Assembly (NCBI GenBank): GCA_038128845.1
Contig: JAYPKL010000002.1
Coordinates: 5,604 to 69,603, forward strand
From: Candidatus Woesearchaeota archaeon
GTDB lineage: Archaea > Nanobdellota > Nanobdellia > UBA10117 > ARS21
DNA length: 64,000 bases
Direction: 5' to 3'
Under the pieces are notes generated by a model, which searched no databases, was not told where the DNA came from, and saw nothing but the letters and a program-made list of their open reading frames with translations. A program made the position numbers and the translations under genes. Positions 29,666 to 59,061 of the stretch are shown here, piece after piece (the first letter of the stretch is position 1; every line of letters starts with the position of its first letter).

Positions 29666-30097
29666 ATGGAATTAACAAAAGAAATTATTGAAAGAATTTA
29701 TTCACTTATAGAGAAGTCTAAAACTGACGGAAAGATAAGAAAAGGAGTAAATGAAGTTACTAAAAGCCTAGAAAGAGGCGAAGCAAAGTTATCAGTTTCT
29801 GCTGAAGACATCAGTCCCGCAGAAATAACAGCACACTTACCAACACTTGCAAAAGAAAAAGGAATTGTTCATGTTACTGTTCCTTCAAAAACAGAACTTG
29901 GTGCAGCAGCAGGTTTACCTGTGGCAACAGCATCAGTTGCAGTAGTAAGCGGTGATTCAAAATTAATTGATGCATTACTAAAAGATATTAAAATTATAAC
30001 TGAAGGTAAAGCAAAACCTAAATCAGAAGAAAAAACTGAAGAAGCTCCGGCAGAAGAAAAAACTGAAGAAGCTCCGGCAGAAGAAAAAACTGAATAA
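29666..30097 (+). CDS. rpl7ae: Ribosomal protein L7Ae with a Lys/Glu-rich repeat tail
   Basis: VNEVTKSLERGEAKL ... VPSKTELGAAAG is the L7Ae/L30e K-turn-binding core. C-terminal extension EEKTEEAPAEEKTEEAPAEEKTE. Confidence 0.85.
   Translation: MELTKEIIERIYSLIEKSKTDGKIRKGVNEVTKSLERGEAKLSVSAEDISPAEITAHLPTLAKEKGIVHVTVPSKTELGAAAGLPVATASVAVVSGDSKLIDALLKDIKIITEGKAKPKSEEKTEEAPAEEKTEEAPAEEKTE
30026..30094 (+). repeat. 27-bp perfect tandem direct repeat (2.6 copies) within the L7Ae 3' end
   Basis: gaagaaaaaactgaagaagctccggca occurs at 30026-30052 and 30053-30079, with a partial third copy to 30094. It encodes EEKTEEAPA repeats. Confidence 0.8.
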
Positions 30098-30348
30098 TGG
30101 CAACAAATGAATCTAACTTCGACGAAAGTGGTAAATTACCTAGAGCAGTTGCTGCAGAAATAACTGAATTAATTGCAAGAGAAGGAAGTAAACAAGTAGT
30201 TACTTTAGTTAGATGTAAAGTACTTGAAGGAAAAGATTCTGGAAAAATTTTAAGAAGAAATGTATATGGTCCAACTCGTATTGGAGACGTAATCATGCTT
30301 ACTCAAACTGAAATTGAAGCATCCTCTAACAAAGGAGGAAGAAGATAA
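30097..30348 (+). CDS. rps28e: Ribosomal protein S28e
   Basis: AEITELIAREGSKQVVTLVRCKVLEGKDSGKILRRNVYGPTRIGDVIMLTQTE matches the S28e OB-fold. Start overlaps the L7Ae stop. Confidence 0.75.
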   Translation: MATNESNFDESGKLPRAVAAEITELIAREGSKQVVTLVRCKVLEGKDSGKILRRNVYGPTRIGDVIMLTQTEIEASSNKGGRR

Positions 30349-38478: not shown

Positions 38479-39690
38479 CTAAGTTAAAGAAATTTGTCTA
38501 TATTCTTTTTTTATAAAATAACTTGTCATTAATGTTACCGCTAACGTTGTTATTGGAACTGCAGGAGCAAATATATCAAATGTATCGTAATTAGAAAAAA
38601 TACCTAAATTTATGGCAGCTAAAATAATAATAAGACTTTCTACATCTAAACTAAGCATTGAGGATGCTATAGTTCCAGGTGCTTTTAATGAAAAATTCTT
38701 TGATAGTATGTATGTAACTACAAATTTAGTAAATATACTAGCAAAAATAAATAAAATTGCAATAGAAAGATATTCATAAATTAAAATTAGATTAAGATTA
38801 AGTCCAAACCAAACAAAAAATAATGGAATAAAAAAACCATTTGATATAGCTTCAATTTTATTTGTGTATAATTTTTTCTTAGCAAAATTTGATTTAGATA
38901 TAACTATTCCTGCTATGAATGCACCAATAATAACTGATAAACCAATTAATTCTGAAAGAAATGCTAATAAAAATAGTAAAATAAAAGTTAATGTAATTTG
39001 AGATTCTTCTCTTGTTGAAGATTTAAACTTATTAATCTTATCTGTAATTTTATTTATTGATATAATAAAATAATAGATTAATATTACAAATATTGTAGAA
39101 AAAATTAATTTAAATATTAACTCGGATGAACTTTGATTTAAGAAAACTGATGCTGCAGATAAAATTAATAATCCAATTAATATGTTAGACATTGACATAT
39201 TTATGAAAGATTGAGCAAATCTTTTTGAAAGTAATTTTTTGGATGATAATAATTTCAAAGGAACAAATATATCTACTACAGAATATGCTAATGCTAGAAA
39301 TAAAGATTGTTGAAAGTTAAAAAATAAATTAAATACATATAACATAACTGCAAATGTTGATAATAAAACTATAACTCCAATTGCTAAGCTTTTGCTATCT
39401 TTAAGATCAAATTTATCTGTTTTTTTATTGATGCCTGCTGTAAATAAAATTAAAATACTACCTATTATTGCAAAGGGTTCTATTAATTCGGGATTTACAA
39501 AATTTAATAAAGATCCTCCAAGTATTATTCCCGCGGTAATCTGACCAATAAGTTCATTTATTCCTATTCTTTCAAATAATTCTCCTAAAAAAATGTATAA
39601 AATAAATATTGAAAAAAATGCCAATAATAAATTGTCAGTCTGACCTAAATTAAGTCCATATTTTGTTAGCAAAGATATATTTTCGTTCAT
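38479..39690 (-). CDS. Monovalent cation:proton antiporter (Na+/H+ exchanger family)
   Basis: 403 aa, about 11-12 TM helices with CPA-like layout. Confidence 0.6.
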   Translation of the reverse strand: MNENISLLTKYGLNLGQTDNLLLAFFSIFILYIFLGELFERIGINELIGQITAGIILGGSLLNFVNPELIEPFAIIGSILILFTAGINKKTDKFDLKDSKSLAIGVIVLLSTFAVMLYVFNLFFNFQQSLFLALAYSVVDIFVPLKLLSSKKLLSKRFAQSFINMSMSNILIGLLILSAASVFLNQSSSELIFKLIFSTIFVILIYYFIISINKITDKINKFKSSTREESQITLTFILLFLLAFLSELIGLSVIIGAFIAGIVISKSNFAKKKLYTNKIEAISNGFFIPLFFVWFGLNLNLILIYEYLSIAILFIFASIFTKFVVTYILSKNFSLKAPGTIASSMLSLDVESLIIILAAINLGIFSNYDTFDIFAPAVPITTLAVTLMTSYFIKKEYRQISLT

Positions 39691-39724: not shown

Positions 39725-41149
39725 TTAAATTTCTTTAATAATATCATACATTGCCAAAGTATCCATTCCACAATACTCTAAAAGTGCATTTCTTGAAACT
39801 GTGTCTTTATTTAGATAATATTTATTATAATATTGAGTGAATGCTTCTGAACCGTCTTGTACATCCAAATGAGAATAATTTTTACCAGTTACTGCGGGTA
39901 AAACATATTTAATTGAAGCACTACCTTTTTGTTCCGGATGATAATAATTAAAATTTTTAAAAATAATATATAAATCAACAATTCTGTCGTGTATATTTTT
40001 TAATTCTTCTTCATATTTTGGAAACTTTAAAGCAAGATTTTTTATTACACTTTTCTCGAAAGCCATGTTATATGTAACGATACTTCCTTCATTCGGAATA
40101 TCTTTAATCATATTTTTTATCAAATTTTCTCTTGGATCCATATTTGATTCTTCTAAAAACTCTTTATGAATTAATTTTTTACCATCATCAATATGAACAG
40201 AATATTGAAATGGAAATTTTTCCCAGGGACTTAGATTATCATGTAGTGGAACTGGTGTTGCCAATGTTTCAAAATCAAAGTATGAAATTGGATATTTTAA
40301 TGAGCTTTTAAATTTATTAATTTCCTCTTCATTCTTATGGATATTTTTATTTTTTAAAGTATTTTTTTGAATTACATGTTTATGGGATTTTAAGAATTCG
40401 TCAGGTAAATCTAGAATAGATAAATATCCTTCTTCCATCAAAGGTTGTGCTTGAGTAAACCAAATTCCGTGTAATTGTAATATATTATGCTCCGGTAAAT
40501 GAGACCAACATATTTCTCTAACGTCGCAATTTTTTGGATTATTACAAAACTTATGCTTATCTTTTGGTAACTCTTTTGATACAAAATTTATAATTCTTTC
40601 AATATTTGAATCAATTTTACTACTCATTTTTGAAACATTATCTGTGATGTCTTCTTCTTTAAATAAATCTTTTAGTTTAATATTACCTGATCTAGTATAT
40701 TCTTTGTTTGCGTGTAATAAATAACAATTATTTATTTTTAAACCGCAAAGTTCCAAAACATATTTTTGAAATGCAACATCATCATAATGTTCTTTTTTTA
40801 CTTTACTTGATGATTTAACTTCAATAATATCCCATCCGTTTTTTGATGGTCTTAAAATATCTACCTTGCAATATAATTTGCTTGTTTCAAATGTTGCTTC
40901 AAAGATCGGTTTATTATATTCTAATGCCGATTCAGTGTCTTTAGATGCATTTGAATAATTTTTATATGAAGAGTCAATTAAAATACCATCTTCATAAAGT
41001 TTTTGTGCTAATTCTCCGAATTCAACACCGCGTTCTACAGCAAATTTTCCTGAAAGCGAAGGTAATTTAGATTTATCATTAAATTTATGCCAAACAACAT
41101 TTAGACATTTTAATGAACTTATATAATCGGACTTAGATATTTTTTTCAT
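39725..41149 (-). CDS. Cas4/RecB-like PD-(D/E)xK nuclease fused to a DnaQ-like (DUF2779-like) exonuclease domain
   Basis: N-terminal domain: lone Cys (SSLKCLNV), DILRPSKNGWDIIEVKSSSK (D...EVK core), and a C-x5-C-x5-C cluster (CNNPKNCDVREIC) as in Cas4 Fe-S nucleases. C-terminal domain: YFDFETLA (Exo I-like DxE), TYNMAFEKSVI (Exo II-like) and YCGMDTLAMYDI (Exo III-like). Confidence 0.5.
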   Translation of the reverse strand: MKKISKSDYISSLKCLNVVWHKFNDKSKLPSLSGKFAVERGVEFGELAQKLYEDGILIDSSYKNYSNASKDTESALEYNKPIFEATFETSKLYCKVDILRPSKNGWDIIEVKSSSKVKKEHYDDVAFQKYVLELCGLKINNCYLLHANKEYTRSGNIKLKDLFKEEDITDNVSKMSSKIDSNIERIINFVSKELPKDKHKFCNNPKNCDVREICWSHLPEHNILQLHGIWFTQAQPLMEEGYLSILDLPDEFLKSHKHVIQKNTLKNKNIHKNEEEINKFKSSLKYPISYFDFETLATPVPLHDNLSPWEKFPFQYSVHIDDGKKLIHKEFLEESNMDPRENLIKNMIKDIPNEGSIVTYNMAFEKSVIKNLALKFPKYEEELKNIHDRIVDLYIIFKNFNYYHPEQKGSASIKYVLPAVTGKNYSHLDVQDGSEAFTQYYNKYYLNKDTVSRNALLEYCGMDTLAMYDIIKEI

Positions 41150-41192: not shown

Positions 41193-41588
41193 TTAAACAA
41201 CTAAATCTTCTTCTTTTGAGGTATTTAATTCTAGTACAAAAGTTTTTTCATCATTTTTCATAAATTCTTCATGATTCTTTTTTAATTTAGCAATTCTATT
41301 TTCTAAATTATCTTGACCCAATTCGCTTTCTAAATAATTTTTTATAGACTTAGTTAAATCTCTTTTTTCTTTTACGGATTTATAGGTATTACCGTCCCAA
41401 TTACGATTTGGTAAAATTACTGATCCTGCAATACATTTTTTAAAATCAATACTAAGATAGGGAACTAAGAAATCTCCTTGATGGAAACTATTATTTTCAA
41501 TAATTGTTACATAAGGTTCATTAGGTAAACCATTATTTTCTTTAACATAATTATTTAATTCTTGTTTTGTATAAATTGGTATTTTCAT
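41193..41588 (-). CDS. Hypothetical protein (131 aa)
   Basis: ORF only. Confidence 0.3.
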   Translation of the reverse strand: MKIPIYTKQELNNYVKENNGLPNEPYVTIIENNSFHQGDFLVPYLSIDFKKCIAGSVILPNRNWDGNTYKSVKEKRDLTKSIKNYLESELGQDNLENRIAKLKKNHEEFMKNDEKTFVLELNTSKEEDLVV

Positions 41589-41628
41589 TTTAAACAGAAT
41601 GTGTTTAATTAAACACTTATAAGTTTTT

Positions 41629-41925
41629 TTAACTTAACAAATCTTCTAAAGTTTTTGAAGAAAATTCTCTTTTTAAAATATCTATAACATTTTCAAATTC
41701 ACTTTTATCAAAATATAAATTATTTCCTTCAGGTTTTAATGGTTTGTTATCATCATGTGTAATTAAATAAGGTATAACTACTCCGGAAAGCATTTCATTT
41801 CCGCTTTTATCATAGGATGTAAATATATGTTCTGATCCGTTTCTTCTTAATAGCACATAAGGTATTTCAACTTCCTTACTTTGTTGTTTTAATTCATATA
41901 AATCTAATTCACTATAAACTTCCAT
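41629..41925 (-). CDS. Hypothetical protein (98 aa)
   Basis: ORF only. Confidence 0.3.
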   Translation of the reverse strand: MEVYSELDLYELKQQSKEVEIPYVLLRRNGSEHIFTSYDKSGNEMLSGVVIPYLITHDDNKPLKPEGNNLYFDKSEFENVIDILKREFSSKTLEDLLS

Positions 41926-41940
41926 AATAAAAAAAGGGAA

Positions 41941-42282
41941 TTATTTAATTTCCCTCAATATAATTTTAAAATTTAATACTTTGCCTGCAAGAGGTCCCGC
42001 AGTATAAGCATCATTTCCAGATAATTCAACAGTTTTTTCATCTCCGACTTTCATACCAATTACTGCTTTATCAAAACCAGGTATTACTTGTCCTGCTCCA
42101 ACAGTGAATTCAAAAAGTCCTCTTCCTTCTGAAGTATCAATTTGTTTACCGTCTACAGTTAACCAATAATCAACCGCAACTGTATTTCCAGATTCTACTT
42201 GTGCCATAATTTTATTTAATCCAAAAAGAATTATAAATGATACTATTAGGTAAAATATTAATTTATTTTTTTTAATTTTCAT
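41941..42282 (-). CDS. FKBP-type peptidyl-prolyl cis-trans isomerase, secreted or membrane-anchored
   Basis: N-terminal signal/anchor. FKBP core VAVDYWLTVDGKQIDTS ... FEFTVGAGQVIPGFDKAVIGMKVGDEK. Confidence 0.75.
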   Translation of the reverse strand: MKIKKNKLIFYLIVSFIILFGLNKIMAQVESGNTVAVDYWLTVDGKQIDTSEGRGLFEFTVGAGQVIPGFDKAVIGMKVGDEKTVELSGNDAYTAGPLAGKVLNFKIILREIK

Positions 42283-43030
42283 AACTTAATTTATCTCTCT
42301 TACTTATTAATTTTGATTTTATATTATTAAAACTATAGGGTCTTTTTATTAAATCGTTCATTCCTTGTAAAATTTTTTCTTCTTCTGCTATTAAAATTAA
42401 GTCGCATTCATTTCTTGATTGTTCATCTTCATCTAAAATAAATTCTAAATTTCCATAAGAATTTGGTATATTTATACTACCGTTAATATTAACTCTTGGA
42501 AATATCATTGATCCAGGAATTGCTTTACCCAACATTTGTGCAAAATATTCTTCTGGAATTATACCATTTGTTTCTTCATTTAACTTTGAATTTAATGAAA
42601 CTCTTCTTTTTCCTTTACTTTTTAATTTTCTAGAATACCAAGATCTATTTTGAACTGGAGCAATAATTTCGGGAGTTAAAACTGAATAAATTTCAGAATG
42701 TTTTTTTTCTTTTCTAATATTATTTAGTATATCCATCAAAGATGCAGCTTCAAATTTATTTGTTCCGTAAATATAATCAAGTTTATCTATCTCAGGTAAA
42801 TTTAAATCAGAAACATGATGATTTTTTTCAAATCCAACTAAACCGGAATATAAAATTGGATCTTCTATATCTCTAGATAATAAATAATTATCAAGAGTAT
42901 TTGTTCTTTCGTGTGTTTTTTTAATAGAAGAATCTCTGACTGATCCTGTTTTAACTTCAAATGCTAAAAAAGCTAATTGATTTTTTAAGGCTTCATCAAA
43001 TGTTGCTGCTAGTTGTTTAGAAAATGCCAT
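42272..43030 (-). CDS. Hypothetical protein (252 aa)
   Basis: ORF only. Overlaps the FKBP gene start. Confidence 0.3.
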   Translation of the reverse strand: MAFSKQLAATFDEALKNQLAFLAFEVKTGSVRDSSIKKTHERTNTLDNYLLSRDIEDPILYSGLVGFEKNHHVSDLNLPEIDKLDYIYGTNKFEAASLMDILNNIRKEKKHSEIYSVLTPEIIAPVQNRSWYSRKLKSKGKRRVSLNSKLNEETNGIIPEEYFAQMLGKAIPGSMIFPRVNINGSINIPNSYGNLEFILDEDEQSRNECDLILIAEEEKILQGMNDLIKRPYSFNNIKSKLISKRDKLSYEN

Positions 43031-44316: not shown

Positions 44317-45294
44317 ATGAAAACTTTGGATAATATATTAATAAAAAATCCTGAACCCAATTTGGAATTTAGCTCAAGTGGATTAAAAACTTTAACAAAA
44401 GCACAACAACAAAAAAGTTTACTAAGAAATATTCATACTACTGTTGATAACGGATTAAAAAATATTACTGGATTTTCAAAAGATAATATTCCATTAAATT
44501 TTGAAAAACTTGATTTTGAATATGGAGATATATCTGGAAGAGTTGAATCTAAACCAACCAGCAGTGTTTCATATAAACCCGTTATGGAAGAATTATGTAG
44601 CTATTTAAAACATAGAAAGGAAAATTTTAAGTTAATTAAAGTCAAAGATTTAATTGGTAAATATTATTCTCTTGTAGATAATAATAAAAGAGAAACTATT
44701 GAACAAAAAATTTATTTTGATGATGAATATAGTATTATGGATGAAATCGGATTTAGTGATGATTTACTTCCTCGAGAAGCACTATTTTCAGTTAATATGA
44801 ATAATTATCAAAATTTGAATAAAGGATCTTTACTAGATAGATTTAAAGCAAAAAAAATGGAAGAATATCTTGATAAAGAAATAATTAAGCCTTTTAACAA
44901 TTTAATTGAAAATCGAACTCTTGAATATTTGGGATTTGATAAAGATAATTTGGAAGAAACTATTGGATCAACTCTTTCAGATGGAGAAATTGCCATAGAT
45001 ACTAAAATCATATCTCGAGAAACAGTAGGATATAATGCAATACTGAAAACGCTATTTAATGAACAAAAAAGTAGAAAAACAAATAGATCGGGTGAATTAT
45101 ATTCATTAATTGATGATAGAGTAGAAAATACTGAAGACTTAGATAAATTATTTGAAAGACAAAATAGAAATGGAATGCCTTATGTTTCTATAGAAAGCGT
45201 GTTATCAAGACTAGATGATATAATATATGATAATACTAAAAGATCAAAAAGACTTGAATGGAAATTTAATCCGATTCATGATTTCTCAGAATAA
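44317..45294 (+). CDS. Hypothetical protein (325 aa)
   Basis: ORF only, hydrophilic, no motif. Confidence 0.3.
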   Translation: MKTLDNILIKNPEPNLEFSSSGLKTLTKAQQQKSLLRNIHTTVDNGLKNITGFSKDNIPLNFEKLDFEYGDISGRVESKPTSSVSYKPVMEELCSYLKHRKENFKLIKVKDLIGKYYSLVDNNKRETIEQKIYFDDEYSIMDEIGFSDDLLPREALFSVNMNNYQNLNKGSLLDRFKAKKMEEYLDKEIIKPFNNLIENRTLEYLGFDKDNLEETIGSTLSDGEIAIDTKIISRETVGYNAILKTLFNEQKSRKTNRSGELYSLIDDRVENTEDLDKLFERQNRNGMPYVSIESVLSRLDDIIYDNTKRSKRLEWKFNPIHDFSE

Positions 45295-45438: not shown

Positions 45439-48400
45439 ATGGAAGAATATACTGAACAGAGAGAGATTACTAACGGACTGGTTATTGACAGAAAATTTAC
45501 AAAAGAAGATGTATCTGCATATGATATGTTTAATTATGATTTGAGAAGTTCAGTTATACGTAATCCTGATGGATCGGTAGTTTTTGAAATGAATAATGTT
45601 GAGGTTCCATCTTTTTACTCGCAAATTGCGACAGATATTCTTGCACAAAAATATTTTAGAAAAAGGGGAGTTCCTACAACTGATGAAAATGGAAATCCCG
45701 TATTAGGATCAGAAAATAGTATAAAACAAGTTGTAAATAGAATGGTCGGATGCTGGACAAATTGGGGTAAGGAATACAATTATTTTAATTCTACAAAAGA
45801 TGCAAAAGCGTTCTACGAAGAAATGTCATATATGATGTTGAATCAAATGGCAGTTCCTAATTCTCCGCAATGGTTTAATACAGGATTATATTGGGCATAT
45901 AACATAGAAGGTAAACCTCAAGGACATTCTTTTGTTAATCCTAAGACAAGTGAATTAGAATATTCAAGAAATGCATATGAAAGACCTCAACCTCATGCGT
46001 GTTTTATATTATCCGTTAAAGATGACTTAGTAAATAAAGGCGGAATTTTTGATTTAGTAACAAGAGAAGCTAGAATTTTCAAATATGGTTCAGGAGTTGG
46101 AACAAACTTCTCTACAATTAGAGGAAAAGGTGAACAACTTTCTGGAGGCGGTACCTCGTCTGGTTTAATGTCTTTCTTAAAAATAAATGATGCTGCAGCG
46201 GGTGCAGTTAAATCCGGTGGTACTACTAGAAGAGCAGCTAAAATGGTTTGTTTAGACATTGATCACCCTGAAATTGAAGAATTCATAAAATGGAAAAGTG
46301 AAGAAGAAAATAAAGTAGCAAGCTTAGTATCTGGTAATGAATCTTGTAAATTACATGTAAATAATATTCTAAAATGTGCGGTTTCTGGTGGAGTAGATTT
46401 ACAAAATAATATTGAATTAAGAGATAGTATCCGTGATGCAAATAATGCTAATGTTCCTGTTCAAATGATTGTAAGGGCTATTGAATTGGCAAAACAAGGA
46501 ATAGCTAAATTTGATTTTAAAAAATTAGATACTTATTATGAAGGTGAAGCTTATGGAACTGTTTCTGGTCAAAACAGTAATAACTCTGTAAGAGTAAGTA
46601 ATGAATTCTTTAAATCTTTAACAAATAATGAAAACTTTAACTTAACTAATCGGACTAATGGAGAAGTTTTCAAAACGGTATCTGCAGACAAATTATGGAA
46701 TGATATAGCAATGAGTGCGTGGATTAGTGCAGATCCAGGTCTACAATACGATACAACAATTAATGAATGGCACACTTGTCCATCTAGTGGTAGAATTAAT
46801 GCAAGTAATCCTTGTTCAGAATATATGTTTTTAGATGATACTGCCTGTAATTTGGCAAGTATAAATCTAGTTAAATTTTACGATGAATCAACAGGTACAT
46901 TTGATATAGAAAGATATAAGCATGCAGTAAAATTATGGACAATAACCTTAGAAATTTCTGTATTGATGGCACAATTTCCTAGTGAATCTGTTGCACAAAG
47001 AAGTTATGATTTTAGAACATTGGGTCTAGGTTACGCGAATTTAGGTTCTCTTTTAATGAAAATGGCTTTACCCTATGATTCAGAAAAAGGTAGAGCTATT
47101 GCAGGTGCATTAACATCAATTATGTGCGGAGAGTCTTATGCAACATCTGCAAAAATGGCTCAAGTTCATGGAGCCTTTGCAAGATATGAAGAAAATAAAG
47201 ATCATATGCTAAGAGTTATTAGAAATCATAGACGTGCAGCATATAATGCAACAAAAGAATCTTATGAAGGATTAACAGTTTTACCAATGGGATTAGATCA
47301 AGATCTTGTTCCAAAAGATATGCTATCTGCAGCACATCAATCTTGGGATAATGCATTGGAATTAGGACAAAAATTTGGATATAGAAATGCTCAAACTACG
47401 GTTATTGCTCCAACAGGTACAATTGCATTAATTATGGATTGTGATACAACGGGTATAGAGCCGGATTTTGCTACAGTTAAATTCAAAAAATTAGCAGGAG
47501 GCGGTTATTTTAAGATTGTAAATAATTCAATAAAACCTGCATTGATTAAATTGGGTTACTCTGAAGAAGAAATAAGATCAATAGAAAAATATTGTGTAGG
47601 TCATGGATCTATTAGAGACGCACCTTATATTAATTTTGAATCATTGAGGTCCAAGGGTTTTGGAGATGAACAATTAAATGCTCTAGAATCAAATGCAAAA
47701 GGCGCATTTGAAATTAAATTTATCTTTAATAAATTTGTACTTGGTGAAGATTTCTGTAAATCTTTAGGTTTTTCTGATGAAAAAATGAATGATCCGAGTT
47801 TTAATATGCTAAAAGAATTGGGTTATTCCAGCTCAGAAATAGCTGCAGCAGATGAATACTTGTGTGGAACAATGACACTTGAAGGTGCACCTCATCTTAA
47901 AGGAGAACATTACAAGATATTTGATTGTGCAAATAAGTGTGGTAAAAAAGGTACAAGATATATACATCACGATGGACATATTAAAATGATGGCAGCAGCA
48001 CAACCTTTTATTTCTGGAGCAATCAGTAAAACAATTAACATGCCAAAAGAAACAACCATAGAAGAAATTAAATCAGCATATTTTGATAGTTGGAAATATA
48101 TGGTTAAGGCAGTAGCTCTATACCGAGATGAAAGTAAACTAAGTCAACCTTTGTCAACTTCGTCAGGAATTAGTGGAGAATTAGACACAATATTTAATGA
48201 AGATAAAAAAACAGTTACTCTAACAAATGAACCAATTGTTCAAGAATTGGTTGAAAATATTGCTCATCACAAAGTAGGTCCTCAGGATCTTTATATACAT
48301 AGTTATAATAATCCTTCAGGTAATTTAGCAAAAATTAAACTTGTTATGCCTAAAACAACCCCAAGTAATCAAGAATTATTAGACTTTGTTGGAACAACAA

Positions 48401-48714
48401 TAAGTTTTGCCTTGATGAGAGGGTATTCCACTAGAGATATATTGGATGAATGTTTTGCTGAGTGGAGAGATCATCCTATTTTGAGAAAAATAGAATCTGT
48501 ACTTAAAGGAGAACAAGAAAATAAAGTAATTCAGACTAAATTGGGTTCAACAGCGGATCAAAATATAACAATTGAAGAACCTGAAGAAGAAGATGCTATA
48601 AAGGCAATGGGCTATACGGGAGCAAAATGTAATGATTGTGGTGCAAGTATGATGCGACAAAATGGAGCATGCTTATTGTGTGATGTTTGTGGTGCAACTA
48701 CTGGTTGTTCATAA
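45439..48714 (+). CDS. nrdJ: Ribonucleotide reductase, class II (adenosylcobalamin-dependent)
   Basis: 1091 aa. Ten-stranded barrel region with active-site stretch [20 protein letters not shown] and C-terminal Zn-ribbon tail [22 protein letters not shown], typical of monomeric class II RNR. Confidence 0.85.
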   Translation: [1091 protein letters not shown]

Positions 48715-48716
48715 TT

Positions 48717-49256
48717 ATGTCAATTTCAACTAAGACTGGAGATTCTGGAAATACATCCTTGTTTGATGGTAGTAGAATAGGTAAAAATTCTACAAGTATT
48801 GAATCGGTTGGCACTTGTGATGAATTAAATTCTTTATTAGGTATAATTCAATCAAAGTATAAATTAGATAAATTAACTATACTTCAAAATGAATTATTTG
48901 TTGTTGGATCAGATATAGCAACACCTATGAACACAATTCATGAAGATAGAACAAAAAGAATAAAGCAAAGACACTTAGAACGAATTGAATCTGAAATATT
49001 AAATCTTGAAAATAAAATGGGTCCAATAACTAATTTTGTACTTCCTGGTGGACATAGCATTTCTGCAAAATTACAATATGCACGTACAATTTGTAGAAAA
49101 TTAGAAAGAAATGTAGTAAATCTTAGTCTAGAAAGGGATATTAATAAGATTTTAATCAAATATATAAATAGATTATCGGATTACATATTTTTGTTAGCAT
49201 TAGATATAAACAATGAATTTGGAGTTAAATCTGAGGATGTTAATTTTGAAATTTAA
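48717..49256 (+). CDS. PduO-type ATP:cob(I)alamin adenosyltransferase
   Basis: MSISTKTGDSGNTSLFDGSRIGKNSTSIESVGTCDELNS matches the PduO N-terminal signature (TGDxGxTSL ... DELNS). ATG at 48717 lies immediately after the nrdJ stop. Confidence 0.75.
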   Translation: MSISTKTGDSGNTSLFDGSRIGKNSTSIESVGTCDELNSLLGIIQSKYKLDKLTILQNELFVVGSDIATPMNTIHEDRTKRIKQRHLERIESEILNLENKMGPITNFVLPGGHSISAKLQYARTICRKLERNVVNLSLERDINKILIKYINRLSDYIFLLALDINNEFGVKSEDVNFEI

Positions 49257-52583: not shown

Positions 52584-53492
52584 ATGAAAATACGTATATT
52601 AGGAACATCTTCTGCATTTCCTACAAAAGAAAGAAATCATTCTGCAAATATGATAAATTATTCGGGAGATAATTTATTATTTGATTGTGGAGAGGGAACT
52701 CAAAGACAAATTAGAATTGCTAAAGAGAATCCTCAAAAAATAAATGCAATATTCATTTCTCATTGGCATGGAGATCACAGTATGGGATTACCGGGATTAA
52801 TTCAAAGTATGGGTATGAATAGAAGAACAAAAAAATTATTATTTTTTGGTCCCAAGGGAAGTGAAAAAAAACTAAAAGCATTATTAGATGTTTTTGATTC
52901 CGATAAATTATCTTATAAAATTGAAGTTAATGAAATTGATCCAAAAGGAATAGAAACAATAATGGAAACATCTTCTTACAAAATTAATTGCATTAAACTA
53001 AATCATACAGTCGACTGTCTCGGATTTTCTTTCATTGAAAAAGATAAGATTCGAATTAATACAGATTATTTAAAATCAAGAAAAATTCCAATTGTACATC
53101 CTGAGTTAAAGGGTCTTTCTCAAGGAAAAGATATAGAAATAGATGGTAAAAAAATAGAATATAACAAATCAACATATACTGAAAAAGGTAAAAAAATAAC
53201 GATTATTTTAGACTCATCATATGATGAAAATTTAATTAAACTAGCAAAAGATTCAGATATTTTATTATGTGAGTCTACTTTTTCAAACAAAGTAAAGGAA
53301 TCTGCAAAAAAAGGAGGTCATATGACTTCCAAAGAAGCAGCAAAACTTGCTAAAATATCTGATTCAAAAAAATTAGTTTTAACTCATTTTTCACAAAGAT
53401 ATAAATCAACAGATGAGCTATATTCTGAAGCTAAATCCATATATAAAAATGAAATTATTATGGCTAAAGACTTTATGGAAATTAAAGTCTAA
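52584..53492 (+). CDS. rnz: Ribonuclease Z (tRNA 3' endonuclease)
   Basis: MKIRILGTSSAFPT and HWHGDHSMGLPGL (HxHxDH). 302 aa. Confidence 0.8.
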   Translation: MKIRILGTSSAFPTKERNHSANMINYSGDNLLFDCGEGTQRQIRIAKENPQKINAIFISHWHGDHSMGLPGLIQSMGMNRRTKKLLFFGPKGSEKKLKALLDVFDSDKLSYKIEVNEIDPKGIETIMETSSYKINCIKLNHTVDCLGFSFIEKDKIRINTDYLKSRKIPIVHPELKGLSQGKDIEIDGKKIEYNKSTYTEKGKKITIILDSSYDENLIKLAKDSDILLCESTFSNKVKESAKKGGHMTSKEAAKLAKISDSKKLVLTHFSQRYKSTDELYSEAKSIYKNEIIMAKDFMEIKV

Positions 53493-55711
53493 TCTTCTTC
53501 TAACCAATCTAAGAATCTATTCCAAAGAGATTTTTTATTTGAATTAGATTTTTTATTTGTTATTTTTTTTGTTTTTATTTTTTTATTTTCTGATTTTGAA
53601 TCTTCATCTAACCAATCTAAGAATCTATTCCAAAGAGATTTTGAATTTTTAGGAGTTTGTTCTTTTTCTAACCATTTGAAAAATCCATCTTTATAATTTT
53701 TAATTATATTTAATCTATTTTTATTAACTTTAGTTTTTGGTTTCTTTATTGTTTTTTTAATAACTTTATTTTTATTCTTCCAAGAGTTTATTTTTGAATA
53801 TATTTCTTTAAACTTATTTGATTTATTTTCTTTTTCATCTAACTCTTTTTCAAGTAAGTCTAAATCATATTTCCAATTTTTATTTAGCATATAAGTATAT
53901 CCAAATAATCCAATAATTAAAATCAAAAATACATACCAGAAATCAAGTAGTCTATTATTAATTCCAGATAAATAAGTTGATAATTTATTATAATATTCAT
54001 CCATTTGTGTAGTGGTATAATTAAATAATTGATAAAATGAATCCGATACATTATTATTTATAGTATTTATATTATTTTTAATTATAGATAGTCTTGATTC
54101 TTTTGTTTGAATTAATAAATTATTATTTGTTTCTTTTCCAAAGTCAGAATTAGAAACTAATTCAATAGCATATTCTTCATTAACTGAATCTCTTGGTACA
54201 GATATGAATAAAGATTCGGTGATTGATTGTTTAGAATTTAGCTCTATTTGTGCAGAAGATAAATCAGTGAATGAAATTGCATCTCCAAAAATGTCCAAGT
54301 TTAAATTTATGTTTCTTAAACCAGTGTTTGATATTTGGATTGGAATCATATTTGAAGATCCTGAAGTTAATTCAACAGAATTTCTTAATTCAATATCATA
54401 ATTATAACATGATTCAAATGGAAGTACACTTAATTTCATAGAATTTTCATGAACTTTCTCTGAATTTGGAAATGATGTAGAAAAATCAATATCATAAATT
54501 CCCGAACTTAAAGAGTCTGGTATTTTGATATCATAATTAAGTTCTTTTACGTTCTTTGAATTTAATAAAAACTCATTATTTTCTAATTTTAAAGTATCAA
54601 TTGAATTAACGTTTACTTTAACCCTTTCATCAAAAGAACCATCATTAGATATTGTTAATTTATTTGATATTTCGTCTCCTGGACAAACTTCAAAAAATTC
54701 TTTTTCAATAGTAGTACTTGATTGTCTACAATCTAATATATTTAGTAGTAAATTTACTTCTTCTTCTCTATTATTTGATTCTGAAGTTGCTTTTAATGAT
54801 ATTTGATATTCACCAACATCATCTAATTTTGGTAAAAATAATAAATTACCATTTGAATTTGAATTTGAATTTACAAATAAATTTTCTTTTGATAATGAAG
54901 CCCAATTTGGTTCACCCAAAAGTTCTAAATTATATTCATCATTTTCTGATCCAAAATTTTCTATAAAATATGGCACTGTTATTTCGGAATTACTACATGC
55001 GCTAATTAAATCTTCATCAACAGATAAATCAAAATTATAGCAATCAATTGAATTAACTCTTAAATTTGAATTTATTTCATTATTATTGTATTCTGATACA
55101 ATTTCAAAATCGTAAGTTCGAATTTTATCTGTTTTAAAAAATACATTAAATGAATTTGATTCTCCTGATTCTACAAATAAATTATTTTCTGAAAAAGATA
55201 TTTTATCTGAAAATTTATTATTGGAAAAAACAGAATAACTATTTGTCCAAATACCTTCATTTGTAATTAATCCATTAAAATCTGCTGTATCTCCAACACA
55301 AACAGTTCTTTCATAATTATCAAAAGTTAAAGAAGACGTATCACAATTATTTACATTTATATTTACATTTATTTTTTTACTTCTTTCATTATTTGAAGAA
55401 ACTATTATTTCTAATTCATAATTTCCTGGTTTAACATATTGATTTGGACTTACATAAATTTTTGATGATCCAATGGAATTTGAATCTAAACTAAATCCAT
55501 TTTGAGAAATAGAAGTAAAAGTTGCAGCGCTACCTGCAGTTGATAATGTAAATAAGTCTTGACTTCCGTAATTTAATAAATTCAAATTAATAACTTCAAA
55601 ATTACTTGGACATACAGAAACTGAACTTACATCAGTATCAATTTGATAGTCTGCGATTACTGGTGAAAATAATACTAATAATATTAATGAAAGATACTTT
55701 TTCATAAACAT
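53489..55711 (-). CDS. Large secreted surface protein with C-terminal TM anchor and repeated cytoplasmic tail
   Basis: 740 aa. Signal peptide, Asn/Ser-rich beta-rich ectodomain, TM helix (FWYVFLILIIGLFGYTY), then tail with two KSLWNRFLDWL(D/E)ED repeats. Confidence 0.5.
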   Translation of the reverse strand: MFMKKYLSLILLVLFSPVIADYQIDTDVSSVSVCPSNFEVINLNLLNYGSQDLFTLSTAGSAATFTSISQNGFSLDSNSIGSSKIYVSPNQYVKPGNYELEIIVSSNNERSKKINVNINVNNCDTSSLTFDNYERTVCVGDTADFNGLITNEGIWTNSYSVFSNNKFSDKISFSENNLFVESGESNSFNVFFKTDKIRTYDFEIVSEYNNNEINSNLRVNSIDCYNFDLSVDEDLISACSNSEITVPYFIENFGSENDEYNLELLGEPNWASLSKENLFVNSNSNSNGNLLFLPKLDDVGEYQISLKATSESNNREEEVNLLLNILDCRQSSTTIEKEFFEVCPGDEISNKLTISNDGSFDERVKVNVNSIDTLKLENNEFLLNSKNVKELNYDIKIPDSLSSGIYDIDFSTSFPNSEKVHENSMKLSVLPFESCYNYDIELRNSVELTSGSSNMIPIQISNTGLRNINLNLDIFGDAISFTDLSSAQIELNSKQSITESLFISVPRDSVNEEYAIELVSNSDFGKETNNNLLIQTKESRLSIIKNNINTINNNVSDSFYQLFNYTTTQMDEYYNKLSTYLSGINNRLLDFWYVFLILIIGLFGYTYMLNKNWKYDLDLLEKELDEKENKSNKFKEIYSKINSWKNKNKVIKKTIKKPKTKVNKNRLNIIKNYKDGFFKWLEKEQTPKNSKSLWNRFLDWLDEDSKSENKKIKTKKITNKKSNSNKKSLWNRFLDWLEED
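53493..53642 (-). repeat. Two near-identical 42-nt copies (1 mismatch) about 108 nt apart in the 3' end of the 740-aa gene
   Basis: tcttcttctaaccaatctaagaatctattccaaagagatttt at 53493-53534, and tcttcatctaaccaatctaagaatctattccaaagagatttt at 53601-53642. Confidence 0.8.
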
Positions 55712-55786: not shown

Positions 55787-57058
55787 TTAGTAATATTTCT
55801 TTGAACTTTTTCTTCCTCTTGATGAGGTTGAAGTTGCTCTTGAAGTTGCTCTTGAAGTTGTTGGCATTAATCCTCTATTAGAAACTAATAGGTAAACAAC
55901 TAATAAACCTGCAACTAACCATCCTAATGATAAATCATCAAAACCGTTGTTGTTTCCTTGGTTTAATCTTGCTTCTAATAATGCTGCAACTTGTTCTTCA
56001 GTTAATGAAGCTGCTTGGTTTCTAGCTTCAACATTTACAGTTGTGCTAGATGAAACAGAAACATCTTCATTTGCTACTGCAACAGTAACTAATTCATTTC
56101 CGGATGCTCCGGAAGGAAGAGTTAATGTAAAGTATCTAACTAATTCTTCATCTTCTTCAACAGTGAAGTAATCTGAAGTAACTGTTTGACCAGCTACAGA
56201 TAATGAAACTAATACATTATCTTCATCAGTTTGACCATTGTTTAAGATTGTAACAGCTACATCAACAGTTTCACCTGCTGCTGCATTGCTTACTCTTAAA
56301 TCAGTAACAACTAAACTGTGTTCATCTCTTTCAACAGTAATACCGTAAGTTTCTTCGAATAAAGTTCCTTCATCAGAAGTTGCTACCACATAAATTTGGT
56401 ATGTTCCTTCATCTAAATCTTCTTCAACGTCGAATTCCATTGTTACTACTTCTTCTTCTTCAACACCTAAGTTAAAGTCACCAGTTTCTTGAATATCTGA
56501 AACTCTTAATCCATTTCCATCAATTAAGTAAGCTTCTAAACTTACGTCATTGTAGATTGTATTACCGTTTTCCAATTCTAATTCAAGAACTATAGTATCT
56601 CCCGGAGATACTTCATCTTCATAATCGTTATCAGCAACTAAATTTGCTTCTAATTCATCAACAGTTTCTGGATTAACTGTAATATCTACAGAAGATCCGT
56701 TTAAGCTAGTGTATACACCACTAGTAGCACCATTTGATACTGCAAAAGTCAATGTTGCTCCATTTGCAACAGTACCTGCAACGAAAGTAGCGCTTGCTAC
56801 ACCGTTACCACCCGCAGTAACTGGACTTAAACTAACTGTTTGTGTTTGAGTAGCTACACCTGTACCTGAAACTGTTAAATCTAAAGTTTCAGCAGTTGTT
56901 ACACCTGTATAGGTGAAAGAAACTGTAAAAGTATCATCGCCATTTTCAATAGCTGCAATACTTGGTGTGCTTACTTCAGTTGCAGCACTAACTGGTATCA
57001 TTAAAGTTAATAATACCAAAAATGCTGTCATTGTTTTTCTTACTAAATTTTCCATCAC
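55787..57058 (-). CDS. Thr/Val/Ala-rich secreted surface protein with C-terminal TM anchor
   Basis: 423 aa. Signal peptide, low-complexity T/V/S/G/A-rich body, TM helix (GWLVAGLLVVYLLV) and basic tail with TSRATSRATS repeat. Locally higher GC than surroundings. Confidence 0.5.
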   Translation of the reverse strand: MMENLVRKTMTAFLVLLTLMIPVSAATEVSTPSIAAIENGDDTFTVSFTYTGVTTAETLDLTVSGTGVATQTQTVSLSPVTAGGNGVASATFVAGTVANGATLTFAVSNGATSGVYTSLNGSSVDITVNPETVDELEANLVADNDYEDEVSPGDTIVLELELENGNTIYNDVSLEAYLIDGNGLRVSDIQETGDFNLGVEEEEVVTMEFDVEEDLDEGTYQIYVVATSDEGTLFEETYGITVERDEHSLVVTDLRVSNAAAGETVDVAVTILNNGQTDEDNVLVSLSVAGQTVTSDYFTVEEDEELVRYFTLTLPSGASGNELVTVAVANEDVSVSSSTTVNVEARNQAASLTEEQVAALLEARLNQGNNNGFDDLSLGWLVAGLLVVYLLVSNRGLMPTTSRATSRATSTSSRGRKSSKKYY

Positions 57059-57090: not shown

Positions 57091-59061
57091 TTATTTTCTC
57101 TTTTTTGACGCTTTATTGTTTGACTTTTGAACCATTTTGTATTCTCTTATTCCAATGTAAGCCATTGCTATAATTAACAATGCTAATACTGGGTTTGATT
57201 CGCTTTGTCTATTTGAAGATCCGCCAAATAGAGATCTTATACCTGTTTGAGGTAAGTTCATTTCTAAATTTTTAGATAATACTGTTTTTCCATTTTGATT
57301 TATATCTAAAGTCAATGAATTTGATTCTTGTGCATTTTCACCAGGCATTACAAATACGTCGAATGATGTTGTTGCACCAGGTTGTAATGTAACTGAAGTT
57401 GGATTTACTATTGCAGTACCCCAGTTAAATTCATCAACTGCTAAATCATATTTAACAGCAATATCTTTTCTGTTTGTTAACGAAAGAGTATATTTTGTTT
57501 GTGATCCAGATTTACCTTCTTCGGAAGTTTTACCTGTAATCATAATGTCCGAATTATCGGATCTGTCATTTCCGCAATCTAAATTAAATGTCTCACTTAA
57601 TTCTGATCCGTCTTTGTTTGAATTTGAATTTCCATCATGTTTAGAAGTAAGGACAATTGAATAAAGTCCATCTGCAGTATTTTGAGGTAATTCTAATTCT
57701 ATTTCTAATTTTTCTGTATCTTCTGAATCAATTGAATCATTAAAGTAATGCCATTCAGATATATCTAATTCCGAAATCTTTACTCTAACATATATATCGT
57801 CGTCTTCATCCAAATCTGATGTACCAATGTTAGTTAAATCAACAACTAAAGTCGGATTTGAAGTACATGAATCTAATAATTTAAATCCAGTTGGAATTAC
57901 ATGTCTAGAATCTCTATCTACATTAAATGTTTCATAATGTCTATTGGATATTTCGTCACCATCATTCGGATCATCTGAAGATATTTCACCTGTAACAATA
58001 ACTTCAACAATATAATCGCCAGATTCTGCATCGTATGGTACTTGGAATTCGATATCAAAATTATCTGTATCTTTATCTTCTTCTAAATCGAAACTTTCAG
58101 AATATTCTTCTTCAATTATATCATCTCCATCAGATACTCGGTAAACATTATATTCAACAGTTATATCTTCGATACTTTCATCTTTATCTGAATATTTATT
58201 GTCTATATTTATATCTGAAATTCGGATATAATCTCCCGGATATGTATCTTTATCATCATTTGTTATATCTTCTAATTCAAAGTTTAATTCCAATTCATCA
58301 TTATGCGATTCAGGTAAAACAAATAATTCTAAAGTTCCGGTAGATTTATTTATTCCATTTGCAGAATATGTTAAAATTCCATTATACTTTCCAAATTCTG
58401 TTGAAGCGTTAGTTGAATAATTAATAGATATATTATTTTCAGAACCTGCATTAATTGTAAATGTAGTCTCATTCGCCAATCCTGTTAAATTTAATTCATT
58501 ATTTTTATTTAAAATTAATTCTGTATCCAATATTGTTACATTATAATTTAAATTACCAGTATTATTGAATTTTAAAATTGCATTTTCGCTTGTACTTGGT
58601 TTTTTTATTTCTAATGTATTATCAAAAAAATTAGTATTTAATGTATCATCAGTATCTACAGTGATTGATAATAAGTGAATATACTCGTCTGCACCATTAG
58701 ATTGATTTTCATAAGTTAAAGTATAATTATATTCTCCTGGGGCAGTATGTTCAGAAATATTAAAAATATATGTTAAATTTTTTTCGTTATTTGTAGAATT
58801 TAATTCAAAATCATAATCGTTTAAAGTTAAAAAATTTGCATTTGTTGGATAACTAATATCAACTGGATCAAATTCTATACTACCAGAAGTAGCATTAAAT
58901 GTAGCATTAAATGTAAAATTATATTCTTTTCCGTGATTTAAAATTGTGGAATTTGGATCTGTTCCTGATAAAGAAAAATTATTTTGAACGGATGCGCCCA
59001 AAACAGCAGTTATACTTAGTAATACTAAAAAGGTTAAAATTGAATTTTTTATTATTTTCAT
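57091..59061 (-). CDS. Sequon-rich secreted surface (S-layer-like) glycoprotein candidate with C-terminal TM anchor
   Basis: 656 aa. Signal peptide, very dense N-x-S/T sequons (NFS, NST, NFT, NAT, NAT, NLT, NIS, NYT, NQS ...), acidic D/E-rich middle, C-terminal TM plus KKRK tail. Confidence 0.5.
   Translation of the reverse strand: MKIIKNSILTFLVLLSITAVLGASVQNNFSLSGTDPNSTILNHGKEYNFTFNATFNATSGSIEFDPVDISYPTNANFLTLNDYDFELNSTNNEKNLTYIFNISEHTAPGEYNYTLTYENQSNGADEYIHLLSITVDTDDTLNTNFFDNTLEIKKPSTSENAILKFNNTGNLNYNVTILDTELILNKNNELNLTGLANETTFTINAGSENNISINYSTNASTEFGKYNGILTYSANGINKSTGTLELFVLPESHNDELELNFELEDITNDDKDTYPGDYIRISDINIDNKYSDKDESIEDITVEYNVYRVSDGDDIIEEEYSESFDLEEDKDTDNFDIEFQVPYDAESGDYIVEVIVTGEISSDDPNDGDEISNRHYETFNVDRDSRHVIPTGFKLLDSCTSNPTLVVDLTNIGTSDLDEDDDIYVRVKISELDISEWHYFNDSIDSEDTEKLEIELELPQNTADGLYSIVLTSKHDGNSNSNKDGSELSETFNLDCGNDRSDNSDIMITGKTSEEGKSGSQTKYTLSLTNRKDIAVKYDLAVDEFNWGTAIVNPTSVTLQPGATTSFDVFVMPGENAQESNSLTLDINQNGKTVLSKNLEMNLPQTGIRSLFGGSSNRQSESNPVLALLIIAMAYIGIREYKMVQKSNNKASKKRK

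Follow-up and report, generated by a model that had tools for sequence, protein, structure and literature searches.

Proteins of the DUF2779 family (PF11074) carry two nuclease domains in one chain. Majorek et al. 2014 placed the family, as F.17, in the 3'-5' exonuclease clade of the RNase H-like superfamily, predicted it to be a 3'-5' exonuclease and noted its co-occurrence with DUF83, the Cas4-like PD-(D/E)xK domain (PMC3985635). A 2026 paper described the two-nuclease architecture in gene MMSYN1_0389 of the minimal synthetic cell JCVI-syn3.0, with both sites intact and a Tyr in the h position, and argued for a role 'beyond bacterial immunity' for this gene, which is quasi-essential in a phage-free minimal cell (PMC13621843). 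In Mycoplasma bovis, a transposon mutant of the DUF2779 gene was growth-deficient in cell culture and was found alongside replication/repair and nanoRNase mutants (PMC7373297). Having been published in 2014 and 2026, the architecture is not new. Here we analyze an archaeal member, a protein of 474 amino acids (aa) encoded on a stretch of 64,000 nucleotides (nt; the window) from contig JAYPKL010000002.1 of a Candidatus Woesearchaeota archaeon (GCA_038128845.1). With four candidate iron-sulfur (Fe-S) cysteines and both active sites intact, it is a good archaeal representative of the family.

The window protein shares with the described DUF2779 proteins (PF11074, F.17, MMSYN1_0389, Mbov_0804) the two-domain architecture, a length of about 470-500 aa, the signatures of both sites and the Cys set. 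In mycoplasmas the members reach about 650-700 aa, and two of the four Cys that the archaeal protein keeps have been lost. The PD-(D/E)xK fold, the D...ExK motif and the arrangement of one plus three Cys are common to Cas4 (SSO0001 4IC1, Pcal_0546 4R5Q, type I-C 8D3L) and solo-Cas4 proteins, whereas the window protein shows no association with cas1/cas2 or with clustered regularly interspaced short palindromic repeats (CRISPR), spaces its Cys trio as C-x5-C-x5-C and carries a fused second nuclease. AddAB/RecBCD and Dna2/EXO5/MGME1 resemble it in having an Fe-S or RecB-type PD-(D/E)xK nuclease at DNA ends and in the concept of an attack on both polarities there. The window protein differs from them in that it has no helicase/translocase domain and in that its second nuclease adopts a DEDD fold instead of repeating the RecB fold. 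COG2251/TM0106 'RecB-like putative nuclease' proteins also carry a Cas4-like (DUF83) domain and are related in architecture, although they form a different family. On the exonuclease side, MrfB/YprB and other PF13482 DEDD exonucleases share the DnaQ-like RNase H fold and the DxE, NxxF(D/E) and (H/Y)xxxD motifs. MrfB, a DEDDh DNA-repair exonuclease of the DnaQ superfamily (PMC11194089), is counted as a relative because PF13482 matches the C-terminal half of the window protein and because MrfB (PDB 8UN9) was the best-scoring match for the C-terminal region of a DUF2779 member (PMC13621843). MrfB is of the DEDDh type and works with a partner helicase, MrfA, whereas the window protein is of the DEDDy type, with Glu at the Exo II position, and lacks a helicase partner.

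Two nuclease domains in a single open reading frame

The initial annotation had read the gene as a Cas4-like PD-(D/E)xK nuclease fused to a DnaQ-like exonuclease domain, and this fusion is borne out by profile matches above the Pfam thresholds, by the conserved sites and by AlphaFold/Foldseek matches. Both profiles that had been suggested as a hidden Markov model (HMM) check, Cas4/PF01930 and PF11074, score above their gathering cut-offs. The DUF2779 match, which bears out the DUF2779-like label given at first, spans aa 290-412 (profile positions 2-126 of 126) and reaches 142 bits against a cut-off of 23.3 (E 1.5e-41). RNase_H_2 (PF13482) matches aa 304-472 with 28.7 bits against a cut-off of 22 (E 1.5e-06), and Cas_Cas4 (PF01930) matches aa 94-216 marginally above threshold (26.3 bits against 22.7, E 8.9e-06). 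The PADLOC Cas4 model PDLC01447 is colinear with the N-terminal half and aligns aa 14-217 with positions 15-160 of its 161, a span bounded by the first and the last of the conserved Cys; a weak PHROG match to a Cas4-like family was also obtained. In the NCBIfam scan the TM0106 family RecB-like putative nuclease profile (TIGR03491) reached 22.6 bits, far under its cut-off of 97.45, so the protein is not a TM0106-family member, and the UU173 family of mycoplasma DUF2779 proteins (NF045869) reached 58.4 bits against a cut-off of 225.

Membership in DUF2779 is established by the HMM score, by colinear homology over the full length and by the family-invariant residues. The 474-aa protein is a typical, textbook member of a catalogued family, differing from it in nothing of substance and adding nothing new in kind. 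Within it, KVD occupies aa 95-97 and EVK aa 110-112, and the DEDD-like motifs FDFET, YNMAFE and YxxxD lie where they had first been located (Table 1). This motif set is far beyond chance. About 25 nt upstream of the nuclease ATG lies a TATA-like A/T-rich string, TTTATATA, which was rejected as evidence of a promoter in a genome of 25% GC.

Table 1 Features of the DUF2779 gene, its domains and motifs, and the adjoining genes in the window.
Feature	Position	Strand	Basis
DUF2779-family two-nuclease coding sequence	39725..41149	minus	474 aa + stop, ATG start, single complete open reading frame
N-terminal Cas4-like PD-(D/E)xK nuclease domain, aa 1-216	40502..41149	minus	Cas_Cas4, PADLOC Cas4, Foldseek
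Cys15, candidate N-terminal Fe-S ligand	41105..41107	minus	invariant in 57 sequences; Cys in 251/259 homologs
PD-(D/E)xK catalytic core D97...E110-V-K112	40814..40861	minus	conservation across 259 homologs
Cys cluster C202-x5-C208-x5-C214, candidate Fe-S ligands	40508..40546	minus	conservation; HMMER alignment to 8d3l
Helical linker joining both nuclease domains, aa 217-285	40295..40501	minus	AlphaFold2 helices 231-239, 256-267, 274-283; pLDDT 82-97
C-terminal DEDDy 3'-5' exonuclease-like domain, RNase H fold, aa 286-474	39728..40294	minus	DUF2779, RNase_H_2, Foldseek
Exo I motif FDFET (D292, E294), aa 291-295	40265..40279	minus	each kept in 258/259 homologs
Exo II-like motif YNMAFE, aa 360-365; E365 at usual Asp position	40055..40072	minus	E365 in 258/259 homologs
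Exo III motif YCGMD (Y459, C460, D463), aa 459-463	39761..39775	minus	each in 258/259 homologs
131-aa ORFan, upstream neighbor	41193..41588	minus	no family match
98-aa ORFan, upstream neighbor	41629..41925	minus	no family match
Na+/H+ exchanger, downstream neighbor	38479..39690	minus	PF00999, E 1.4e-41

Conservation of the active sites and the cysteine set

Conservation was assessed in an alignment of 57 sequences (36-82% identity) and in a set of 259 full-length homologs. In the 57-sequence alignment the invariant columns are C15, E84, D97, E110, K112, D124, Q128, C208 and C214 in the N-terminal half and D292, E294, E365, D392, Y459, C460 and D463 in the C-terminal half, and every family-invariant residue is present in the window protein; C202 and C142 are kept in at least 90% of the aligned sequences. 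Among the 259 homologs, D97 and K112 are found in all and E110 in 255, and the D-ExK triad is intact in 256, while the DEDDy set (D292/E294/E365/Y459/D463) is intact in all but one, so that both catalytic sets are kept in at least 98% of the homologs. The family carries two peculiarities in its exonuclease motifs: Glu replaces Asp in Exo II (NxxFE), and an invariant Cys adjoins the catalytic Tyr (Y-C-x-x-D-T).

The arrangement first described for the Cys residues, one before the nuclease core and three after it, holds for the conserved set formed by C15 and C202/C208/C214 and fails for the raw sequence, which contains eight Cys (15, 94, 135, 142, 202, 208, 214 and 460). C202 is kept in 248, C208 in 251 and C214 in 232 of the 259 homologs, and all four candidate Fe-S ligands occur together in 222 (86%). 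The one useful match in PDB sequence searches was to Cas4 8d3l, in which HMMER aligns the Cys trio of the nuclease with the Cys cluster of 8d3l through a 3-residue insertion. The equivalent D/E/K residues of the DUF2779 family have been aligned to the metal ligands of Cas4 (4IC1) (PMC13621843). Judged from the sequence, the D...(D/E)xK motif and the four-Cys set are of the Cas4 type, and binding of an Fe-S cluster is predicted; likewise the profile, the fold and the Exo I/II/III motifs are those of a DEDD exonuclease, for which 3'-5' activity is predicted. The Cys and D/E/K residues align to Cas4 and the C-terminal domain falls in nuclease families, the two points on which the initial annotation had staked its reading.

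The gene is under strong purifying selection, with a ratio of non-synonymous to synonymous substitution rates (dN/dS) of 0.077 against a syntenic relative (L121), a value comparable to those of the Na+/H+ exchanger and the 252-aa protein nearby.

Predicted structure and fold matches

An AlphaFold2 model computed with the family alignment has a mean predicted local distance difference test score (pLDDT) of 94.1 and a predicted template modeling score (pTM) of 0.87, the latter indicating that the packing between the domains is predicted with confidence. The model falls into three parts, an alpha/beta N-terminal domain (about aa 1-216), a helical linker (217-285) and an RNase H-like domain (286-474). 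The RNase H-like fold of the C-terminal domain, for which structure prediction had been proposed as a check, is recovered, with beta-strands at 288-296, 312-321, 326-332 and 356-359 and a C-terminal helix.

Searches of the PDB with Foldseek matched the N-terminal half to Cas4 (8d3l_I as the top match, and 4r5q), MGME1, EXO5 and AddAB, and the C-terminal half to a DnaQ domain from Streptococcus thermophilus DGCC 7710 (8h2f/8h18), TREX1, the DinG exonuclease domain (9kqh) and PolB of African swine fever virus (ASFV). When the PDB was searched by sequence, the whole protein, the family profile and profiles of the N- and C-terminal domains taken one by one gave marginal matches only, and no solved structure was detectable in this way. 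One sequence observation concerns 9qhs_A, deposited as a putative DNA-directed DNA polymerase I, whose residues 260-309 align with aa 335-382 of the window protein and carry the unusual Exo II string of the DUF2779 family, VYNQSFE, with Glu rather than Asp. This similarity in sequence suggests a particular lineage of polymerase proofreading domains as the one closest to the DUF2779 exonuclease domain.

The whole two-domain model is matched by five giant-virus models, with query-normalised template modeling scores of 0.58-0.65 and E-values of 1e-12 to 1e-15. These BFVD entries are A0A3G4ZWN9, A0A5K0U8I2, E3T4R0, A0A5J6VIM9 and A0A3G5AGZ9, from Faunusvirus, Yasminevirus, CroV, a Megaviridae sample and Sylvanvirus. 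The giant-virus 'YprB RNase H-like domain' proteins (CroV E3T4R0, Faunusvirus, Yasminevirus) thus resemble the window protein in structure over the whole length, whereas the viral proteins are 12-15% identical to it in sequence, range from 471 to 892 aa and come from viruses of eukaryotes. Because giant-virus proteins match the entire model, the fusion of a Cas4-like with a DEDD domain also occurs in Nucleocytoviricota.

Family size and distribution

Full-length homologs were found at 36-98% identity, and an indexed search returned 1,558 family matches at 98-100% query coverage. Clustering at 50% identity gave 7,429 clusters at E<=1e-3, 4,998 at E<=1e-10 and 2,199 at E<=1e-30; nearly all of the 2,199 are 470-500 aa long and align in one stretch over residues 1-473. 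Among 185,579 GTDB species genomes at least 596 matches were found, spanning Dehalococcoidia, Verrucomicrobiota, Omnitrophota, Actinomycetota, Woese-, Nano-, Pace- and Micrarchaeota, Heimdallarchaeota and others. In IMG/VR, relatives lie on 35 of 2.9 million contigs. Viral copies are thus few, which speaks for a housekeeping role, and a phage origin was rejected on this count and on the weakness of the PHROG match. NCBI labels members, including those of Woesearchaeota, as "DUF2779 domain-containing protein". Two contigs (L045 and L059) of one Nanoarchaeota metagenome-assembled genome (MAG; Modern_marine.mb.67) each carry a full-length member; unless this reflects contamination in binning, paralogous DUF2779 copies can coexist. 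With thousands of members in bacteria and archaea, two intact sites, no partner and a quasi-essential homolog in a minimal synthetic cell, the family is a worthwhile problem.

Genomic context of DUF2779 genes

The surroundings of DUF2779 genes were compared in 84 loci, taken with flanks of at most 10 kb and yielding 1,188 open reading frames (ORFs) that were clustered all-against-all, and in a sample of 150 immediately adjacent genes from 81 loci. No neighbor cluster was present in more than 7 of the 84 loci. The recurrent clusters, which comprise tetratricopeptide repeat (TPR) proteins, an ATP-binding cassette (ABC) ATPase, a superfamily 2 (SF2) helicase, beta-CASP, Dcm, Vsr, histidine kinase and serine recombinase, each occur in 4-7 loci at varying positions. 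The 150 adjacent genes match 224 Pfam families, none of which, besides those of generic TPR proteins, occurs more than 4 times. The co-occurrence with defence islands or with NurA/HerA/Mre11 that had been put forward for checking did not appear: neither NurA/HerA/Mre11 nor cas genes feature in the 25 Pfam families matched most often by the adjacent genes or in the 10 recurrent clusters.

When the nuclease and its neighbors were searched with PADLOC-DB v2, the nuclease matched weak stand-alone Cas4 profiles only and the neighboring ORFs gave no match; among the 150 adjacent genes of the family the commonest PADLOC matches were DNA methyltransferase models, with 3-4 genes each. No CRISPR-like array was found in the 64-kb window. 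Judged by the window, by the local neighbors (L15e, FKBP and an antiporter) and by the most frequent families and recurrent clusters around its homologs, the protein does not qualify as a CRISPR-adaptation Cas4, which would have cas1/cas2 and an array nearby; judged by the PADLOC matches, it does not qualify as a member of a known anti-phage system, which would be a PADLOC component accompanied by its partners. The initial annotation had taken the small ORFs and the antiporter beside the gene to fit an accessory role in defence or DNA-end processing; this part falls away, as these genes are not conserved partners of the nuclease and no partner recurs in the 84 loci.

The sole hint of an island-like placement is a Dcm-Vsr or restriction-type neighbor in roughly 5-9 loci. 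Five loci (L006, L025, L059, L064 and L071) have a Dcm C5-methyltransferase no more than 10 kb from the DUF2779 gene, and in three loci the two genes are adjacent; a Vsr endonuclease is also present in three of the five, and serine recombinases occur in 4 other loci. The DUF2779 gene may thus lie in variable or mobile regions of some genomes.

In the window, the nuclease gene is part of a co-directional housekeeping cluster, with L15e, a conserved 252-aa protein and FKBP upstream. Genes for exosome subunits, S2, Rpo6, an aCPSF-like beta-CASP protein, a ribonucleotide reductase (RNR) with a cobalamin adenosyltransferase, two aminoacyl-tRNA synthetases and CorA are nearby, and Rpp14 is also found near the nuclease in this Woesearchaeota lineage. 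The lack of a conserved neighborhood, the purifying selection and the housekeeping context point to core DNA metabolism and away from CRISPR and defence.

Proposed function and alternative explanations

We favor a core DNA function because of the housekeeping context, the retention of the gene in reduced genomes, the quasi-essentiality of a distant homolog and the lack of a defence partner. On this evidence it is somewhat probable that the protein is a stand-alone, motor-less DUF2779 enzyme with two nuclease sites whose core function lies in the repair, end-processing or turnover of DNA; it contains neither an ATPase nor a helicase domain. A role in CRISPR adaptation or in a dedicated anti-phage system is less likely.

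By analogy with Cas4, AddB, EXO5 and MGME1, the Cas4-like domain would bind an Fe-S cluster, thread 5' single-stranded DNA ends and cut them in the 5'-3' direction with Mn2+ or Mg2+ (for the action of Cas4-type nucleases, see PMC5704561). The DEDDy domain, by analogy with MrfB/YprB, DnaQ and polymerase proofreading domains, would remove nucleotides in the 3'-5' direction by two-metal catalysis, with Tyr459 as the general base. Since a 5'-3' Cas4-like site and a 3'-5' DEDDy site would then be joined in one chain, the enzyme may act with both polarities at one end, so that, without ATP, a single polypeptide could shorten or degrade the two strands of a DNA end, or tails of either kind. Its role would be that of a housekeeping enzyme that processes DNA ends and repairs or turns over linear and damaged DNA, including the recycling of nucleotides in a genome-reduced DPANN archaeon. 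An extension of this proposal, which we regard as speculative and on balance unlikely, holds that DUF2779 proteins are motor-less, dual-polarity enzymes of DNA-end resection or degradation that replace RecBCD/AddAB or HerA-NurA in genome-reduced prokaryotes (DPANN archaea, Mollicutes, Dehalococcoidia and the candidate phyla radiation). If true, such a substitution would explain the quasi-essentiality of the JCVI-syn3.0 homolog.

Several points weigh against a core DNA function of this kind. The housekeeping context was observed in this Woesearchaeota lineage and the context is variable elsewhere, and the Dcm/Vsr, GmrSD, Mrr or recombinase genes at about 5 of 84 loci are also compatible with a defence or mobile-element role. 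The polarity, the substrate (DNA or RNA, single- or double-stranded), the metal dependence and the Fe-S binding are extrapolated from better-known enzymes, and a literature search for DUF2779 found no biochemical characterization, in keeping with the description of this architecture in the initial annotation as functionally uncharacterized. The mycoplasma proteins are distant relatives (58 bits against the 225 required for UU173), and the syn3.0 protein is without two of the four Cys; because of this distance and this Cys loss, the mycoplasma phenotypes may not transfer to the archaeal protein. At the level of residues, the third acidic position of the exonuclease site is Glu and not Asp, D392 is a fifth invariant acidic residue without an assigned role, and the C-x5-C-x5-C spacing of the Cys trio departs from the C-x2-C-x5-C of type I-C Cas4 8d3l.

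The same two sites could instead form a stand-alone nuclease against mobile elements, a motor-less, RecBCD-like shredder of linear DNA directed at phage or plasmid DNA ends. Defence systems repeatedly include nucleases of the Cas4 family, such as ACE1 with prokaryotic Argonaute (PMC12094033) and UvrD-Cas4 fusions beside restriction-modification genes (PMC5704561). A minority of DUF2779 loci contain Dcm (3 adjacent, 5 within 10 kb), Vsr (4), GmrSD (2), Mrr (2), SLFN/AlbA_2 (2) or serine recombinases (4), and the patchy distribution, which crosses domains of life at about 40% identity, together with the two copies in one Nanoarchaeota MAG, suggests horizontal transfer. We nevertheless judge such a role improbable, though not negligibly so, since the PADLOC matches are confined to stand-alone Cas4 profiles, the 84 loci contain no conserved partner or island, and the gene lies between ribosomal, FKBP and exosome genes in the window genome and its relatives under strong purifying selection. 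A homolog is, moreover, quasi-essential in phage-free JCVI-syn3.0 (PMC13621843).

A role in RNA processing or decay, in which the DEDDy domain would attack the 3' ends of RNA as RNase D does and the PD-(D/E)xK domain would serve as an endo- or 5' exoribonuclease, appears decidedly doubtful. Many DEDD nucleases are RNases, for example RNase D, RNase T and Rrp6 (PMC3985635), and the M. bovis mutant was recovered with a nanoRNase mutant (PMC7373297). In the Woesearchaeota lineage, genes for the exosome, Rpp14, a beta-CASP RNase and ribosomal proteins lie near the DUF2779 gene, but this RNA-gene neighborhood is not kept beyond close relatives. Furthermore, the nearest folds and profiles are those of DNA enzymes (Cas4, MGME1, EXO5, AddAB, DnaQ, TREX1, the DinG exonuclease, the PolB exonuclease and MrfB), and Fe-S domains of the Cas4/AddB/EXO5 type are DNA-end binders.

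Very improbable, and close to refuted, is an accessory of CRISPR adaptation that trims prespacers from both sides by combining trimmers of the Cas4 and DnaQ/DEDDh types: the best structural matches are indeed the type I-C Cas4 of the Cas4-Cas1-Cas2 complex (8d3l) for the N-terminal half and, for the C-terminal half, 8h2f, which we take to be a CRISPR-associated DnaQ trimmer, but the window has no CRISPR-like array, cas families are absent from the 25 most frequent adjacent-gene families and from the recurrent clusters, and DUF2779 is abundant in lineages generally without CRISPR (Mollicutes, DPANN). DEDDh trimmer-integrases are known (PMC10284694), yet the quasi-essential homolog of syn3.0 (PMC13621843) also speaks against this role.

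Local neighborhood and the small open reading frames

The window is very AT-rich (22-33% GC), and a nearly identical contig is present in a marine Candidatus Woesearchaeota MAG (GCA_038110725.1), where the gene order is the same: L15e, the 252-aa protein, FKBP, the 98-aa ORF, the 131-aa ORF, the DUF2779 gene and the Na+/H+ exchanger. The neighbors are as they had first been described, two small ORFs without a family match (41193-41925) and a cation antiporter (Table 1). The Na+/H+ exchanger bears no relation to the nuclease.

The 98-aa and 131-aa ORFs have no match in Pfam, NCBIfam, PADLOC or PHROG, and each has 2 homolog clusters among 5.8 billion sequences, confined to near-identical Woesearchaeota contigs. 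There is no significant paralogy among the 98-, 131-, 78- and 110-aa ORFs and the 252-aa protein, and no significant homology to the small ORFs of relatives (best phmmer E-value 0.007 in an 18-sequence set). Unrelated ORFs of 87 and 33 aa occupy the slot in relatives with a 60%-identical nuclease. An AlphaFold model of the 131-aa ORF built from 3 sequences was uninformative (pLDDT 49).

Against L121, dN/dS is 0.25 for the 98-aa ORF and 0.39 for the 131-aa ORF, with exact lengths kept, compared with 0.077 for the nuclease and with 0.03-0.07 for three other neighbors, namely L15e, the antiporter (0.04) and the 252-aa protein (0.07). The two ORFans evolve 4-20 times faster than their neighbors at non-synonymous sites (dN 0.10-0.14 against 0.005-0.03). 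They are probably real, fast-evolving ORFan genes; they are lineage-restricted and form no conserved unit with the nuclease.

On the other side of the gene, four relatives (L001-L004) encode a Cys-rich protein of about 100 aa where the window has the antiporter. It is found at 7463-7759 in L001, 7463-7774 in L002 and 7456-7761 in L004, on the same strand as the DUF2779 gene and 46 nt downstream of it. The protein is conserved where the nuclease is 60-64% identical, has multiple CxxC-like pairs and no Pfam match, and is absent from the window.

The 252-aa protein (42272-43030, minus strand), encoded between L15e and FKBP, likewise has no Pfam match. It is syntenic in the 60%-identity relatives L001-L003, at 26% identity (phmmer E-value 1e-17), and is under strong purifying selection. 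It is a conserved unknown of this Woesearchaeota clade.

Other features of the window

A single tRNA was found in the window. A 1,091-aa RNR is encoded at 45439-48714 on the plus strand and is followed by an overlapping cobalamin adenosyltransferase (48687-49256, plus strand), a pair consistent with a B12-dependent class II RNR. In two relatives (L001/L002) the RNR gives two separated Ribonuc_red_lgC matches, which hints at an insertion within the catalytic domain.

Three ORFs have no Pfam match at E<=1e-4, namely those of 740 aa (53489-55711, minus strand), 423 aa (55787-57058, minus strand) and 325 aa (44317-45294, plus strand), and an adjacent ORF of 656 aa (57091-59061) has weak Ig-like/MG2 matches only. 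These four may encode lineage-specific surface proteins. Finally, a perfect tandem repeat of 27 nt, present in 2.6 copies with a 100% match, lies at 30024-30094, where the ORFs 29666-30097 (plus strand) and 30018-30296 (minus strand) overlap.

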